Part shown: in pieces, positions 6,040-36,177 of the stretch
Layout of the letters: each line of letters begins with the position of its first letter
Numbering within the stretch: the stretch's first letter is position 1
IMG/VR virus record: IMGVR_UViG_3300037722_001090
Direction: 5' to 3' (one strand)
DNA length: 64,000 nucleotides
From: a virus
Lineage: Duplodnaviria > Caudoviricetes
Notes under the pieces: generated by a model
The model's database searches: none
Told to the model about the DNA's origin: nothing
The model's input: only the letters and a program-made list of their open reading frames with translations
Made by a program: the position numbers and the translations under genes

Positions 6040-7164
6040 CTACTTAAATAAAAATTTAACAATCGTATCAGCACTATTGCGCCATACTTTTTCTAATATA
6101 TCTTTAGACTGAAACTGACCATGTTCTTTACGTAAGCTAAATATAATACCAGTAAAAGGAGTTTTAACTGGCGTATCTTTAGTTACAAAAATAGCAAAAG
6201 ATTTTTGATCTTCATACACCTGAGAAAACGACCAAACAAAGTACAAATCAAGATATGCCATTTGCATCTTAGCTTTAACTTCAGCCATTATATCTGCTAC
6301 TTCAGGAAAATAAGTAAGAACTTCATCTTCTTCGCCTGCAAGAATAAAAGGAATAATATTTTTAGGAAGAAAAATATTATCATTACCCTTAAGCTGATGT
6401 AGCGCAACGTATGTTTTGCTTTTAATTTTCATTCGCAAACCATTTACATCACGAACAACGATACCTTCAAAAGTAGGATCCGACTCTTCTTTCTCATTCA
6501 GAAAAGCAATAACCTCATCAGTATCTTTAAATTTATGAGATTCTGGTCTTTTAAAGTTATGTACTTTTGCGATTACATCGCATAGCCTTGTACTAAATTC
6601 AAGAAGCAATTCATCATATATATGAAATATAGTCAGTAAAATTGCTTTAGATTCAGGATATAGTCGAACTATTTTATTCCATATAGAACAAAACTCAAAT
6701 ACAAGACAAATATCATCCGCAGCCGTAATCTCGTCTGCAGTTTTACCAAGAGCTTCCCAAAAAAATTCAGCCCAAGTCTTACCGCATTCATGAATATTAT
6801 ATTCAGCAAAAGAACCACGAGTATTTACTCTCCAAGTTCCATTATAGTTATATAGAAGAATCAAAGATCCATCTTCTTTATCAAGAGCAGTAGATCCTTC
6901 CCAAACAAATTTATTAGTAATTTCAAGAGCTTCACCGGCATTAAAGAAGCGATTAAAAGCTTTAGCTACAACTTTCCATGTATCTATCTCAAGGACAAGT
7001 CCACGACATTCCATAACAATTGGAAGCATTTTTTGAGATTCAATTTGGTCATAATTAAGGATAACTAAAGGATCTACTGGATGCTTAACCACTTTAATTC
7101 CAAAATGAACAGTAAGGTCTTCCAAAGTCTTACCGTTAAGCAAATATTCTTGTACATGTAACAT
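6040..7164 (-). CDS. T4 Rnl1-like RNA ligase
   Basis: KEDGSLI motif I, FEGIVVRD and KIKS motifs. Confidence 0.85.
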   Translation of the reverse strand: MLHVQEYLLNGKTLEDLTVHFGIKVVKHPVDPLVILNYDQIESQKMLPIVMECRGLVLEIDTWKVVAKAFNRFFNAGEALEITNKFVWEGSTALDKEDGSLILLYNYNGTWRVNTRGSFAEYNIHECGKTWAEFFWEALGKTADEITAADDICLVFEFCSIWNKIVRLYPESKAILLTIFHIYDELLLEFSTRLCDVIAKVHNFKRPESHKFKDTDEVIAFLNEKEESDPTFEGIVVRDVNGLRMKIKSKTYVALHQLKGNDNIFLPKNIIPFILAGEEDEVLTYFPEVADIMAEVKAKMQMAYLDLYFVWSFSQVYEDQKSFAIFVTKDTPVKTPFTGIIFSLRKEHGQFQSKDILEKVWRNSADTIVKFLFK

Positions 7165-7318
7165 AATTAGTCCCTTAAAATCTGAATGTAGCACAAATAT
7201 TAATACCTGCAGCAAAAATCCAATAAAGAGACATCCTAATATCTCCTTTTATCAAATACGTAATACTAGCTATAGTCATTAATGTTATGATAATTAAAGG
7301 AAAGATCTTTTCCATAAG

Positions 7319-7846
7319 TTAAATTACTTTCAAAAACCTACTGACAAGTTCCATATCATCAAACACATCATTGCCTGCAGAGTTATTTCGTATTACATAA
7401 GCAGGATGCCATGTAGCCATTAATGGAACACCTTGGTATGAATGCCATTTACCTCGCAATACAGAAATAGCATTACTTTTACCACTTAAGAACTGAGCAG
7501 CAAACTTACCAAGTGTAATAATGACCTTAGGTTTAACCTCTGCTATTTGACTAATAAGGTAAGGAGTACAGGCAGATATTTCATCAGGCTCAGGATTTCT
7601 ATTGCTAGGAGGTCTACATTTACAAATATTAGCAATATAAACATCTTCTCTCTTAACACCAAGAACTTTAATATATTTATCTAACATCTTACCTGATTGC
7701 CCACAGAAAGGCACACCAGTAGCATCCTCAGTAGCCCCAGGAGCCTCTCCAACGAACATAATGTCAGCAGTAATACTACCGCTACCAATTACAATATTAG
7801 TTCGTGTGTTATGAAGTTTACATTTCTTACAGTCTGTAATTATCAT
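7319..7846 (-). CDS. uracil-DNA glycosylase, family 4
   Basis: CKKC, VGEAPG, CRPPSNR, TWHPAY. Confidence 0.93.
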   Translation of the reverse strand: MIITDCKKCKLHNTRTNIVIGSGSITADIMFVGEAPGATEDATGVPFCGQSGKMLDKYIKVLGVKREDVYIANICKCRPPSNRNPEPDEISACTPYLISQIAEVKPKVIITLGKFAAQFLSGKSNAISVLRGKWHSYQGVPLMATWHPAYVIRNNSAGNDVFDDMELVSRFLKVI

Positions 7847-9579: not shown

Positions 9580-9603
9580 ATAAATAATTCCTTATGTTTT
9601 TAA

Positions 9604-9689
9604 TAGTAGCCGGAGAGAGACTCGAACTCTCAATCCGCAAGGGCAAGGGATTTTAAGTCCCTCGTGTATCGCCATTCCACCACCCGGCC
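9604..9689 (-). tRNA. tRNA-Leu(TAA)
   Basis: AGGGA-CTTAAAA-TCCCT, long variable arm; CCA not encoded. Confidence 0.9.
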
Positions 9690-9696
9690 ATTGTAT

Positions 9697-10086
9697 TTAA
9701 ACTCTATAGACAAATACTTTTAACCCAAGAGCTTTAGCATTTGCAATCATATTTTTTGTACCAGGACTAACACCATCCCAAATAGCAATAAGCGCTTCAG
9801 CATTTTCAGCCATCAACTTATTACGCCTAAGTCCAGCATAAGCATCATACTTTTTACCGAATTTATTAACTTTAACTCTAGCATCAGGATGATTAATATC
9901 ATCCCATTTAGCAGGATAAGGATCAACTACTACGTTATTCTCCTTTGCCCATACTTCACCAAGTGTATCAACTCCAGGTGCACGGCCACTAACTACGCAT
10001 GAAACATCAAAACCTGAAGCCTTAATAGCCTCTCTAATAGCATCTAAGCTTACAATACTTCTACTTCCAGCGATAATAGTCTTCAT
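9697..10086 (-). CDS. SLOG/YspA-like (DUF2493) protein
   Basis: IAGSR, SGRAPGVD, AGLRRN, WDGVSPGT. Confidence 0.82.
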   Translation of the reverse strand: MKTIIAGSRSIVSLDAIREAIKASGFDVSCVVSGRAPGVDTLGEVWAKENNVVVDPYPAKWDDINHPDARVKVNKFGKKYDAYAGLRRNKLMAENAEALIAIWDGVSPGTKNMIANAKALGLKVFVYRV

Positions 10087-10301
10087 TAATCCTCCATCAT
10101 TACTTTAAGATCAGCATCACAATATTTACACTCTTCAGCAGCTTTATGCCAAACAACTTCCCATCTACCTTTATTTTTAGGTAGAATATGAGCATTGTTA
10201 CCAGCATCTATTTGTGTTCTTTTAATTACAAGTGCTAGCATTTCACTTTTAACGTTAGCTCTAAGGTGAATGACCTTGGCTTTAGGTAGTTCAATATCCA
10301 T
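10086..10301 (-). CDS. hypothetical protein
   Basis: 71-aa ORF translationally coupled to the next gene. Confidence 0.6.
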   Translation of the reverse strand: MDIELPKAKVIHLRANVKSEMLALVIKRTQIDAGNNAHILPKNKGRWEVVWHKAAEECKYCDADLKVMMED

Positions 10302-10326
10302 ATTTTTATTCCTATAGAGTTTAAAA

Positions 10327-10362
10327 TGGTGCCCCTGGTAGGATTCGAACCTACGACAAGTG
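10327..10362 (-). pseudogene. 3' half of a disrupted tRNA (probably Arg)
   Basis: GTAGG-TTCGAAT-CCTAC-CAGGGGC-A-CCA; pairs with the 5' half at 11086-11117. Confidence 0.85.
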
Positions 10363-10363
10363 A

Positions 10364-10373
10364 GTTAATAACA
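10364..10373 (+). promoter_or_regulatory. GTTAATAACA motif variant
   Basis: At the tRNA truncation point, upstream of the HNH gene. Confidence 0.55.
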
Positions 10374-10408
10374 AATATGATTTCGAATCATAAAATAAAG
10401 GAGCTACC

Positions 10409-10987
10409 ATGTTAGTAAAATGTAAAAATTGCAATAAAGAATTTGATAAAATACCAAGTCAAATTGCAAAATCTAAAAATAATTTTTGTTCTAAATCATG
10501 TAGTGCAACATTTAACAATAAAGGTAAGCAGCGTAATCCACCAAAGATAAGAATTTGTAGACAATGTAGTTTAACATATACGTATAAGCGAAAAGAAAAC
10601 ACATTAACTTTTTGCTCTAACTGCCTTAATACACTTAAAATAGATCGCAATAAAAACATAAGTTTTGTTTCAGAACAAATTAAGCAACTCACAATTGGAG
10701 AATATCGAAATAAAGAATCCGTAAAAAGCAAACACCCATCATGGAAACATGCTCATATTCGTATACTTAATAGATCGTGGAATGCAGATTTAACTAAAAT
10801 ACCATGTCAAAACTGTAAATATGATAAACATATTGAACTATGCCATATTAAATCTGTAGCATCATTTAAAGACAATGCAGTGCTATTAGAAGTTAATAGT
10901 CCAGATAATAATCTTGTACTTTGCAGAAATTGTCATTGGGAGCTTGATAATAATATTATTAAGATTGAAGATATACCTAAAAGATAA
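10409..10987 (+). CDS. HNH homing endonuclease with Zn ribbons
   Basis: CQNC..HIELCHIK..NLVLCRNCH; antisense insert inside a tRNA gene. Confidence 0.9.
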   Translation: MLVKCKNCNKEFDKIPSQIAKSKNNFCSKSCSATFNNKGKQRNPPKIRICRQCSLTYTYKRKENTLTFCSNCLNTLKIDRNKNISFVSEQIKQLTIGEYRNKESVKSKHPSWKHAHIRILNRSWNADLTKIPCQNCKYDKHIELCHIKSVASFKDNAVLLEVNSPDNNLVLCRNCHWELDNNIIKIEDIPKR

Positions 10988-10990
10988 TAA

Positions 10991-11075
10991 TGGAGCGCCC
11001 TGGAGGAATCGAACCTCTCACATCCATCCAACTTTTTATGTACGGGTTTAGAAGACCCGTGTTGGAGCAGGGCGC
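10991..11075 (-). tRNA. D-armless tRNA-Arg(TCT)-like gene
   Basis: GCGCCCTG/CAGGGCGC-T-CCA; ACGGGT-CTTCTAA-ACCCGT; D arm replaced by CTCCAAC. Confidence 0.75.
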
Positions 11076-11085
11076 ACTACCTTAA

Positions 11086-11117
11086 ACCTTCTGCTCTATC
11101 CGCTGAGCTACAGAGGC
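11086..11117 (-). pseudogene. 5' half of a disrupted tRNA (Arg-type D loop)
   Basis: GCCTCTG-TA-GCTC-AGCGGATA-GAGC; acceptor complements 10327-10362. Confidence 0.85.
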
Positions 11118-11132
11118 ACATCAATTATATAG

Positions 11133-11771
11133 CTATCGCCAATTAATAGCACTCCAATGAAAAGGAGAACTGGGGAACTTAGGTTGATCAAGTTTTATAA
11201 AATCAGAATTCTGAGGAACTGGTAGTTTCATGCTTAGTTTTTCCAGAACTTTTCTTGTAATATTCATAGCGACAGAATCATCACACAATATATTTTCAAA
11301 CGGCATACCATGATGAATTAAAAGCTTACTTATTTCAATATCAATTTGCTTTGCTTCTTCTTCAGTCTGCATGCGACCTTTTGGATTATATTCTTTTTGC
11401 CTCTTAAGAAAAATATTCATATTATTGAATGAATTAAATAGTCCAATTACCATACCTTCAAAATGTTCAATAACATCAGGCTCACTAGTAGGTGTCTTGC
11501 TCCTCTTATTATAATACAAAGATAGCAAAAGAGGAGAATCTGTTACAATAACATCAAGTTGATTTAGCAACCTAAATTGCCTATGATATTGCTTTGCTGT
11601 AATATACAATTGGTTATCAAGCATATTAAAATGCTTATCCCATACTTTTTCTTTAGCATATTCAGTAACAAGCTCTGCATTTAAACCAGCCTTCTTAAGC
11701 ATACTATAAACTTCAGCAGCCGTTGTACTTTTGCCTGTTCCAGGCCCTCCATACAGATTTACAACTAACAT
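11133..11771 (-). CDS. NadR-like P-loop nucleotide kinase
   Basis: GGPGTGKST Walker A; VTEYAKE and TDSP. Confidence 0.72.
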   Translation of the reverse strand: MLVVNLYGGPGTGKSTTAAEVYSMLKKAGLNAELVTEYAKEKVWDKHFNMLDNQLYITAKQYHRQFRLLNQLDVIVTDSPLLLSLYYNKRSKTPTSEPDVIEHFEGMVIGLFNSFNNMNIFLKRQKEYNPKGRMQTEEEAKQIDIEISKLLIHHGMPFENILCDDSVAMNITRKVLEKLSMKLPVPQNSDFIKLDQPKFPSSPFHWSAINWR

Positions 11772-12028
11772 ATTATAAATCCCCTTTCTATACAGACAGG
11801 ACATTTCTTTTCATGAAAATTTTTAGTCCAATTACAACTAGTTTTTTGTGGTCTATTACTCTCATGTCCAAGTGGACATGCCTCTACATATGGTTCATGT
11901 CGATAGCCGCCATATAAAGCACATTGACTGTGTGTACTCTCCCCAAATTCATTAGCAAGAAGTCTGCACTGATCTGTCATTGAATTACAACTCATATAGT
12001 AAGTATGTTCACAAGTCATTATAGTCAC
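11765..12028 (-). CDS. Cys-rich hypothetical protein
   Basis: Several Cys/His pairs. Confidence 0.5.
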   Translation of the reverse strand: MTIMTCEHTYYMSCNSMTDQCRLLANEFGESTHSQCALYGGYRHEPYVEACPLGHESNRPQKTSCNWTKNFHEKKCPVCIERGFIIC

Positions 12029-33423: not shown

Positions 33424-33468
33424 TGGTTGGGATAACTGGATTTGAACCAGTGACCCCCGAGTTATCAG
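33424..33468 (-). pseudogene. 3' part of the old tRNA-Ile(GAT)
   Basis: CTGATAA-CTCGG-GGGTC-ACTGG-TTCAAAT-CCAGT-TATCCCA-A-CCA. Confidence 0.9.
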
Positions 33469-33472
33469 CTTT

Positions 33473-33546
33473 TGGTACGCTCACTAAGAATTGAACTTAG
33501 ATGGTCCGGTTATCAGCCGAATCCTCTACCGTTGAGGTATGAGCGT
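33473..33546 (-). tRNA. tRNA-Ile(GAT), cassette-borne copy
   Basis: TTCGG-CTGATAA-CCGGA; ACGCTCA/TGAGCGT-A-CCA. Confidence 0.9.
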
Positions 33547-33561
33547 ATAGTTTCGAATTTA

Positions 33562-33571
33562 GTTATTAACA
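33562..33571 (+). promoter_or_regulatory. GTTATTAACA motif
   Basis: 28 nt upstream of the HNH start. Confidence 0.65.
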
Positions 33572-33599
33572 CTTATCACATATTGATAAGGAGTTAATA

Positions 33600-34085
33600 A
33601 TGAATTCATGCTTAAATTGTAGTAAAGAAACACTTAATCCAGTATTTTGTTCACGCTCATGTTCTGCTTCCTATGCTAATAAAATAAAGCCAAAACGTAA
33701 GAAAGAGGGTAAATGTGCAATCTGTAATGAAATAATCTCTGCTTCAAGGGCTTATTGTTCAGATATTTGTCGTGGTAAAGCTAGATCTATTGCCCGTAAA
33801 AATTCTAAAGCAAAAACGGGATATGAAAATATAAAAACCCACCGGCAAAAAGTCAAATTAAGAGCCGTACAATATAAAGGAGATAAATGTCAAATATGTA
33901 ATTATGATAAAACACCAGTTAATCTATCATTTCATCATTTAAATCCAGGTAAAAAAGATTTTAACCTTAGTGGTAATTATCACTTAACCTGGGAGACAAT
34001 ACAGGCTGAACTTGATAAATGTATTTTATTATGTATGAATTGTCATGGAGAAGTTCATGTAGGAATTATAAAAATTCCAGACTGA
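33600..34085 (+). CDS. HNH homing endonuclease
   Basis: CLNC, FCSRSC; CQICNY, SFHH, KCILLCMNCHGEVH. Confidence 0.9.
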   Translation: MNSCLNCSKETLNPVFCSRSCSASYANKIKPKRKKEGKCAICNEIISASRAYCSDICRGKARSIARKNSKAKTGYENIKTHRQKVKLRAVQYKGDKCQICNYDKTPVNLSFHHLNPGKKDFNLSGNYHLTWETIQAELDKCILLCMNCHGEVHVGIIKIPD

Positions 34086-34096
34086 GCTATACCCCA
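34077..34096 (-). pseudogene. 5' fragment of the old tRNA-Ile
   Basis: TGGGGTA-TA-GCTC-AGTCTGG; acceptor complements TATCCCA. Confidence 0.85.
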
Positions 34097-34916: not shown

Positions 34917-34990
34917 TGGTCGAAAGTGATGGACTTTAACCACCGGCCTCCTCCACCCAAGGAGGTGCCCCTTCACCGGGCCGACTTTCG
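34917..34990 (-). tRNA. atypical tRNA-Pro-like gene (6-nt anticodon loop)
   Basis: CGAAAGT/ACTTTCG-A-CCA; CCTCC-TTGGGT-GGAGG; T loop TTAAAGT. Confidence 0.6.
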
Positions 34991-36094: not shown

Positions 36095-36177
36095 TGGCTC
36101 TGAGAGTTGGATTTGAACCAACGACCTCGCTTTTTAAAGGCGGCCACCTACGCGCTCTACCACTGAGCTATCTCAGA
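36095..36177 (-). ncRNA. tRNA body with a distorted anticodon arm (contains CTTTAAA)
   Basis: Canonical acceptor, D and T arms; about 9 extra nt in the anticodon region. Confidence 0.65.

Follow-up and report, generated by a model that had tools for sequence, protein, structure and literature searches.

An HNH endonuclease gene and a putative non-cloverleaf tRNA-Arg(UCU) within a broken tRNA-Arg gene of a tRNA-rich phage

A canonical tRNA-Arg gene lies broken in two in the 64,000-nucleotide (nt) stretch of phage DNA that we analyzed (the window; IMG/VR record IMGVR_UViG_3300037722_001090, Caudoviricetes), and between its halves, at 10327-11117, are an HNH endonuclease gene and a second tRNA-Arg(UCU) gene whose predicted structure is not a cloverleaf. 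Our reading, to which we assign a probability of about 0.65, is that a free-standing homing-endonuclease cassette landed in the anticodon region of this phage's canonical tRNA-Arg gene and brought the second tRNA-Arg(UCU) gene along as a passenger. A further part of the proposal, that the passenger is a working decoder which evolved, or has been kept, as a version of the HNH enzyme's own target that the nuclease does not cut, we advance tentatively and at somewhat under even odds. The phage is large and rich in tRNAs: ARAGORN finds 24 tRNA genes, nearly all of them on the minus strand, and the HNH protein is on record in contigs of up to 205 kb.

The broken tRNA-Arg gene

Both remnants can be read directly on the minus strand as parts of a canonical class I tRNA-Arg. 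The 5′ remnant (11084-11117, read from 11117 to 11084; nt 1-34 of the tRNA) comprises the acceptor strand GCCTCTG, U8 and A9 (TA), the D arm GCTC-AGCGGATA-GAGC with GGATA in its loop, A26, the 5′ strand of the anticodon stem, GAAGG, and, at the inner end, T32, T33 and T34. The 3′ remnant (10327-10360, read from 10360 to 10327; nt 43-76 of the same tRNA type) consists of C43, the variable loop TTGTC, the T arm GTAGG-TTCGAAT-CCTAC, the acceptor strand CAGGGGC, A73 and CCA. The old gene has lost nt 35-42, and its 3′ remnant is unable to pair with GAAGG. An initial annotation of the window had described the two halves as pairing perfectly in one acceptor stem; all seven positions of the outer acceptor strands do pair, but one of the pairs is G-U (T4-G69) and the stem is not strictly Watson-Crick. 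Both halves had also been located, at 11086-11117 and 10327-10362, with inner ends that are 2 nt away from those we read (11084 and 10360), and the D arm (GGATAGAGC) had been called Arg-type, which its A20 bears out.

The remnants enclose an antisense HNH gene and a TCT-anticodon tRNA, as had been proposed, and both can be read within 10327-11117. Next to the 5′ remnant on the minus strand are an 8-nt spacer, AAGGTAGT (11076-11083), and the new tRNA-Arg(UCU) gene (10991-11075), which is 85 nt long with an encoded CCA. The HNH gene is an open reading frame (ORF) of 192 amino acids on the opposite, plus strand (10409-10987) and runs toward the new tRNA, from which it is separated by 3 nt. Its leader (10373-10408, plus strand) holds a palindrome, TATGATTTCGAATCATA, and a GGAG ribosome-binding site, and is preceded by a palindromic motif, GTTAATAAC (10364-10372, plus strand), 36 nt upstream of the HNH start codon. 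Outside the ORF there are about 130 bases between the remnants, 85 of them in the new tRNA, and the ORF and the inner tRNA leave fewer than 50 nt of the insert for other elements.

What was the broken gene? When IMG/VR was queried with the first 25 nt of the 5′ remnant, any base being allowed at position 16, 25 phage tRNAs were returned, every one of them tRNA-Arg (about 20 TCT, 2 TCG and 2 ACG), in agreement with the initial suggestion that the halves belong to one Arg-type tRNA. One of the 25, at locus L085 (L numbers designate the loci that we fetched), is an interrupted TCT gene. Most of the intact relatives share the 3′ strand CAGGGGC including the T4-G69 wobble, and the 3′ remnant, which was not part of the query, differs at just one of its 34 positions from the tRNA-Arg(TCT) of L083. 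ARAGORN found 454 tRNAs in the fetched loci taken together, and those that agree best with the two remnants jointly are again Arg(TCT). The pairing of the remnants is not due to chance, because ARAGORN with introns allowed joins exactly 10327-11117 (with a 708-nt intron), all 25 relatives of the 5′ piece are tRNA-Arg and the 3′ piece matches L083 at 33/34; by these matches, the halves are remnants of a single tRNA-Arg gene. The retained T34 fits UCU or UCG, not ACG. Since T34 was kept, about 20 of the 25 relatives are UCU and homologous HNH genes occur in introns at U34|C35 of tRNA-Arg(UCU) genes, the broken gene was most probably of the UCU type.

The locus is an insertion that killed the old tRNA gene and not an intron. 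Rfam at E≤10 gave no group I or group II signal in 10200-11250, and, of the features by which a group I intron would be recognized, there is neither a ribozyme core nor an intact 3′ exon, with the 5′ piece ending in T34. The HNH ORF is supplied with a start codon, a ribosome-binding site and an upstream motif of its own, and it is not within an intron or intein. With no ribozyme to splice the remnants, we consider the old gene dead. That it survives as a functional interrupted tRNA, the 708-nt insert being removed from the RNA or the halves being joined in trans, is extremely improbable. Such a gene is what ARAGORN -i reports, as one tRNA at c[10327,11117], but the nt 35-42 that it would need are missing, a ribozyme core is absent, most of the insert is filled by the HNH ORF on the other strand, and the anticodon stem that is called consists of G-T, A-T, A/A, G-T and G-T. 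We also rejected the identity that the program assigned, tRNA-Leu(taa) with a 708-nt intron, which combines this bad anticodon stem with a class I body and an Arg-type D loop and has no ribozyme. A sub-threshold Rfam tRNA at 10330-10404 (27.6 bits) was rejected as a composite of the 3′ remnant and the HNH-leader palindrome TATGATTCGAAATCATA. A stretch resembling this palindrome, GATTCGAAA, precedes the HNH gene of L108.

The rewired tRNA-Arg(UCU)

The new tRNA gene begins with one strand of an 8-bp acceptor, followed by C, the helix strand TCCAAC, A and the anticodon arm CGGGT-CTTCTAA-ACCCG; then come a 10-nt bulge, the second helix strand (GTTGGA), TGGATGTGA, a T stem of 4 bp that is closed by the loop TTCGATT, the 3′ strand of the acceptor, the discriminator T and CCA. 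There is no D hairpin, and the helix TCCAAC/GTTGGA encloses the anticodon arm, an arrangement that we refer to as rewired. The minimum-energy structure from RNAfold (-33.2 kcal/mol) is exactly this fold. ARAGORN misses the gene and no Rfam model reaches its gathering threshold here; tRNA-Sec comes nearest, with 33.8 bits where 47 are required and with the D arm deleted in the alignment, so that 10991-11075 is not a canonical cloverleaf tRNA (RF00005). It nevertheless keeps canonical traits: acceptor and T stems that sum to 12 bp (8 + 4), a TTCGAnn T loop, a 7-nt anticodon loop with U33, and CCA.

Rewired tRNAs of two types recur in other loci. In the type with 8-bp acceptor and 4-bp T stem (8/4; n=7: the window, L109, L120, L125, L133, L149 and L190), pairs were counted on a segment-based alignment, and the enclosing helix, of 5-6 pairs, has standard pairs at every position in every sequence, with compensatory changes among them; pair 2, for example, occurs as A-T, T-A, C-G and G-C. 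In these seven sequences covariation extends to the remaining three helices. A 7/5 type, whose alignment was anchored on a conserved TAA, is commoner than 8/4; here the acceptor is followed by U8 A9 N and a strand of 3 nt, the anticodon arm comes next, and after a further 2-8 nt the 3 nt complementary to that strand lead into UAA(N)GGA and the T arm. At least nine different triplet pairs form its enclosing helix (CGG/CCG, CAG/CTG, CTC/GAG, CGC/GCG, CCT/AGG, GCC/GGC, AGA/TCT, CCC/GGG and CGA/TCG), and one subgroup has an extra covarying helix of 4 bp, in which bases 8-11 pair with the bases just after GGA. Taken over 38 unique rewired sequences the helices covary, and there is conservation of the anticodon loop, CTTCTAA, and of the T loop; by the measure of covariation, the rewired tRNA is a selected structure.

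A D-loop-like stretch, (U)AAUUGGA, comes after the enclosing helix, and the parts of a D arm thus appear to be present in the rewired tRNA in a different order along the chain. The base that follows GG in this stretch tracks the anticodon: it is GGA in 34 of 34 members with a YCU anticodon (L120 and L125 being read by eye as TGGA) and GGU in 4 of 4 with UAU, the window tRNA having TGGAT. A20 is the main determinant of arginine identity in bacteria and U20 is listed for isoleucine (PMC9976931), and for this reason a correlation of this kind would be expected if the cognate synthetases charge these tRNAs. Rewired tRNAs with a TAT anticodon (AUA, Ile-type) are found at L156, L186, L149 and L086 with GGT in place of GGA, from which it follows that the architecture is not confined to tRNA-Arg.

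A tRNA of this kind would have a use in the window, where AGA and AGG make up 116 of the 351 Arg codons (33%) in 25 ORFs and there is no other UCU tRNA. The same design is carried by the cultured Salmonella phage Felix O1, in which there is an unannotated 7/5 rewired tRNA-Arg(UCU) at AF320576.1:25951-26032 (1482-1563 of L192). The authors of the Felix O1 genome paper had expected, and did not find, a tRNA for the over-used AGA codon (PMC3185647). The Felix O1 gene is directly upstream of ORF100, an HNH-like zinc-finger ORF that is only remotely similar to the window HNH (E=0.012), and the class of rewired tRNAs is for that reason not tied to a single HNH subfamily. In addition, a strict IUPAC pattern for the 8/4 type retrieved one new member, L190, in which the rewired tRNA is part of an ordinary tRNA array with no HNH gene beside it.

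On the proposed reading the rewired tRNA would be matured, charged with arginine and used on the ribosome. Could it instead have a role other than decoding, as a decoy that draws off host nucleases directed at tRNAs or in the regulation or processing of the HNH transcript, or be a decaying pseudo-tRNA, the cassette having simply destroyed tRNA-Arg function? ARAGORN and the Rfam tRNA model both reject the gene, it is physically tied to a selfish gene, and no non-cloverleaf tRNA has been documented to work in bacteria, all known bacterial tRNAs being cloverleaves according to a 2024 paper (PMC11551756). We nonetheless regard this explanation as improbable, because neither the covariation of the helices in 38 unique sequences nor the conservation of CTTCTAA and the T loop fits it, and the strict agreement of GGA with YCU (34/34) and of GGU with UAU (4/4), which accords with synthetase recognition, is not predicted for a decoy. 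The presence of the type in a plain tRNA array (L190), the Felix O1 copy that supplies the AGA tRNA its genome paper expected, and the variable orientation of rewired genes relative to HNH genes, which argues against a fixed cis-regulatory role, also speak against it.

HNH genes at phage tRNA genes

Two CxxC zinc ribbons lie in the N-terminal part of the window HNH protein, and an HNH/zinc motif is in its C-terminal part. At E≤1e-3 there are 127 homologues, of which most had already been annotated with PF13391, and in an alignment of 40 homologues H146, N163, N167, H176 and four CxxC pairs are invariant; the gene looks intact. A tblastn search with the protein against cultured phages gave three weak partial matches only.

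We surveyed the family at 80 IMG/VR loci fetched with the HNH alignment, plus four contigs obtained by exact protein look-up. In 43 of the 80 loci a rewired tRNA adjoins the HNH gene, at a distance of up to about 200 nt from the stop-to-stop ORF; its anticodon is TCT, CCT or TAT, and the arrangement is convergent, divergent or tandem. With this descriptor, 80 unrelated phage loci (about 640 kb) gave no such tRNA and 25 tRNA-rich loci gave one. The locus most like the window is L108 (HNH 64% identical), which has the same order of old 5′ piece, rewired tRNA(TCT), antisense HNH gene and old 3′ piece; L109 (HNH 59% identical) has the same rewired tRNA and HNH gene without remnants. Broken canonical tRNAs around the HNH gene, with no ribozyme, are also found at L110, L116-118, L122, L124, L127, L141/143, L159, L162 and L177, and at the family loci most of the broken tRNAs, those of L108 included, have Arg-like D loops of the GGATA type.

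At four loci (L126, L178, L157 and L170) the HNH gene is instead antisense in a group I intron at U34|C35 of tRNA-Arg(UCU). L126 and L178 have core elements of the R/S type and clean CTT|...|CTAA exon junctions, L170 has the same junctions, and L157 scores 32.5 bits with Rfam Intron_gpI. The intron of L085 is at the same tRNA-Arg(UCU) site, but its HNH is sense and of another family. L085 in fact has two neighboring interrupted genes, Arg(UCU) and one with a CAT anticodon (6086-6760 and 6920-7730), each with a group I intron that holds a sense-strand HNH ORF (Rfam 30.4 and 68.8 bits). In the HNH tree, which is midpoint-rooted and read for topology alone, the rewired-tRNA context occurs throughout and the intron context in sub-clades. 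Intact, intron-bearing and broken tRNA-Arg genes are thus all to be found across a family that, by the company its genes keep, is specialized on tRNA genes.

Two loci suggest further variations. About 100-230 nt past the HNH stop of L139, on the opposite strand, there is an apparent first half of a rewired tRNA through CTTCTAA, with a start as in L116, followed by a complete canonical tRNA-Arg(TCT); here replacement may have gone the other way. On the reverse strand of L169 (1503-2354) a tRNA with the rewired 3′ signature (GCTAATTGGATTCAT before the T arm) is apparently split by an HNH-containing insert; some family members may therefore target rewired genes.

The palindromic motif upstream of the HNH gene is one of nine copies of GTTAWTAAC in the window (2626, 10364, 16861, 21538, 25784, 33562, 37221, 38087 and 54011), where 0.96 would be expected and none of 100 shuffles reached nine. 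At the ORFs that were checked (2666, 10409, 21570, 33600 and 54043) the motif is closely followed by a GIY-YIG or HNH gene, and it may be a shared promoter or operator of the homing endonucleases of this phage; the copy at 10364-10372, GTTAATAAC, is accordingly a candidate promoter or operator belonging to the cassette. This copy overlaps a weak sigma-70-like site, ATAACA-17-TAAAAT, and a sigma-70 scan found promoter-like sites to be no commoner than in shuffles, and no terminator.

A second cassette of the same logic is found at 33424-34096, where pieces of an old tRNA flank an antisense 161-amino-acid HNH gene and a complete canonical tRNA-Ile(GAT), with the HNH gene next to the old 5′ piece and the new tRNA next to the old 3′ piece; the old pieces are the 5′ end TGGGGTA...AGCTCAGTCTGG and an anticodon-to-CCA part whose acceptor strand TATCCCA pairs with that 5′ end. 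At 53404-53531 a tRNA of 126-128 nt passes Rfam (51.4 bits) and is missed by ARAGORN at default settings; once introns are permitted, the program calls it tRNA-Tyr(gta), with 53 nt inserted. Unusual loops and a 2-base "anticodon" are reported by ARAGORN at 34917-34990 and 36095-36177, and a 91-nt tRNA-Ile(tat) with a long extra arm lies at 977-1067. Several members of the tRNA set of this phage are non-standard.

Proposed homing mechanism, history and known systems

How might such a cassette spread? It would consist of the HNH gene, its own upstream motif and the passenger tRNA-Arg(UCU) gene. In a mixed infection the HNH enzyme would cut the canonical tRNA-Arg gene of a cassette-free relative, and recombinational repair would then copy in the nuclease gene together with the passenger, which would keep AGA decoding going. 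The cassette-bearing genome would itself be immune because the passenger's anticodon arm lies within a new helix and not behind a D hairpin, so that the DNA on both sides of its anticodon loop is unlike the nuclease target. What the passenger has in common with the old gene is the 7-nt anticodon loop alone, the DNA differing on both flanks, and this makes it a plausible nuclease-immune replacement. By the parallel with SegB, discussed below, it is probably the canonical tRNA-Arg genes of cassette-free relatives that the HNH enzyme cuts.

Several points weigh against the cassette reading. The first is that the 5′ junction falls exactly at U34 and is followed by intron-like bases, so that the gene may have been invaded first by an intron. 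The spacer AAGGTAGT with the G that follows it gives AAGGTAGTG, and the tRNA-Arg introns of L085, L126 and L178 start with TAAGTAGTG, AAGTATTAAC and TAAGCTATAA, respectively; this resemblance of the spacer to the first bases of group I introns in tRNA-Arg is suggestive, and the match is short. On such a history, a group I intron with an antisense HNH gene would have come first, at U34|C35, its core and nt 35-42 of the tRNA would later have been lost or replaced, and the rewired tRNA would have been recruited beside the HNH gene later still, making the 5′ junction an old splice site and not a cassette breakpoint. The present state of the locus would be the same. We consider this history unlikely. 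In its favor, besides the junction directly after T34 and the likeness of AAGGTAGTG to three intron starts, homologous HNH genes do reside antisense in such introns, and intron-borne members of the family are nested among cassette-borne ones (in the midpoint-rooted tree, by topology alone). Against it, the likeness extends over only 8-9 nt and the T at the junction can be assigned to either partner, there are no R/S elements or other remnant of a core, the linkage with rewired tRNAs runs across the whole HNH tree, and L108, L110, L118, L122 and L159 have their target tRNA broken in the D arm or T arm and not at U34.

The insertion is, furthermore, deduced from the remnants only, as neither a cassette-free allele of this phage nor one of a syntenic relative was recovered. 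Contigs from four runs that were compared over 9700-11800 contained no joint of that allele, and both cassette junctions were covered; additional contig matches at 10325-10357 proved to be unrelated tRNA T arms. All near-identical database copies (L106 and L107) carry the cassette. An exact search of metagenome_contigs with 24 nt of the 5′ remnant had no matches, in a collection from which the source phage itself is absent, and a megablast of 9600-11900 against the phage collection found no match. Of the neighboring genes, the AAA_28 gene has no IMG/VR relative, and its best homologues are at most 60% identical, in other contexts and not syntenic; the SLOG gene has many relatives, at 40-54% identity, which served as control DNA only. 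Among the points to be set against the reading are also the cleavage specificity of the HNH enzyme and the immunity of the cassette, both of which we infer; the family HNH genes that stand beside an intact canonical tRNA-Arg(TCT) at L121, L123 and L139, from which it follows that not every family member can cut genes of the Arg(TCT) type; the match of Pfam HNH_2 to residues 133-184, which at 20.4 bits (E=4.7e-4) falls just short of the cut-off of 21; and the U73 of the new tRNA, which is allowed in bacterial tRNA-Arg and less usual.

If the cassette reading is true, it describes a new escape from the dilemma that cutting one's own essential target is lethal, and an entire class of non-cloverleaf tRNAs would be linked, in its origin or in its spread, to selfish nucleases. 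If in addition the passenger is a working decoder that the nuclease does not cut, a homing endonuclease would have a third route by which to colonize an essential, sequence-constrained gene, beside the self-splicing intron and the intein, namely a topologically rearranged copy whose DNA is no longer recognizable, and bacterial arginyl-tRNA synthetase, RNase P, EF-Tu and ribosomes would routinely accept a tRNA with the anticodon arm wired into the core in a different order. Phage tRNA sets would also be under-counted by standard tools, the "missing" AGA tRNA of Felix O1 being an example. The rewired class offers natural test cases for what the bacterial translation apparatus needs of a tRNA core, could supply compact orthogonal tRNA scaffolds and, since cultured phages carry the same design, is directly testable.

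Free-standing homing endonucleases are known from phage tRNA clusters, SegB and the T5 enzymes among them, and group I introns with homing-endonuclease ORFs occur in the anticodon loops of bacterial and phage tRNAs, for instance in tRNA-Leu(UAA) after U34. To our knowledge, none of the reported tRNA-cluster enzymes carries a structurally re-engineered substitute for the gene that it destroys. We found no paper on a homing endonuclease that carries a rearranged substitute tRNA, nor any on non-cloverleaf phage tRNAs, and a 2020 review of non-canonical tRNAs does not mention phages (PMC7609411).

The closest parallel is SegB, which cuts inside a tRNA gene of phages that lack segB (tRNA-Asn of T2L) and so drives inheritance of its own tRNA region (PMC2330249). 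As in the window, its gene lies between or inside phage tRNA genes and not in an intron, and the homing logic that we propose for the window cassette is the same. However, SegB belongs to the GIY-YIG family and recognizes the T stem-loop, whereas the window enzyme is an HNH protein, and segB sits between intact genes with no altered replacement for its target, whereas the window has two remnants and a non-cloverleaf substitute. The tRNA-Arg(UCU) introns of L085, L126, L157, L170 and L178 resemble the window in that its insertion point is also after U34, in that the same HNH family is present (antisense in L126 and L178), and in the problem that would be solved, namely how an invaded tRNA gene stays useful. 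They differ in that the window has no ribozyme core or intact 3′ exon, and rescue there would come from a second gene and not from splicing.

For the rewired tRNA itself there are two partial precedents. The allo-tRNAs and tRNA-Sec (8/4, 9/3 and 8/5; PMC7609411) recall its 8-bp acceptor and 4-bp T stem, and tRNA-Sec is its best Rfam match, but they keep the D arm, have a long variable arm and are of Ser, Sec or Leu-like identity, not Arg; moreover, the commoner rewired type is 7/5 and not 8/4. The D-armless mitochondrial tRNA-Ser(AGY) (PMC4013460, PMC7609411) likewise has no D hairpin and forms a three-way junction of acceptor, anticodon and T arms. In that tRNA, however, a short flexible connector replaces the D arm and the factors that handle it have co-evolved, whereas the carriers of the rewired class are phages of bacteria, and their tRNAs have a covarying helix of 3-6 bp that encloses the anticodon arm and, between this helix and a canonical T arm, a conserved UGGA that is like G18 G19 A20.

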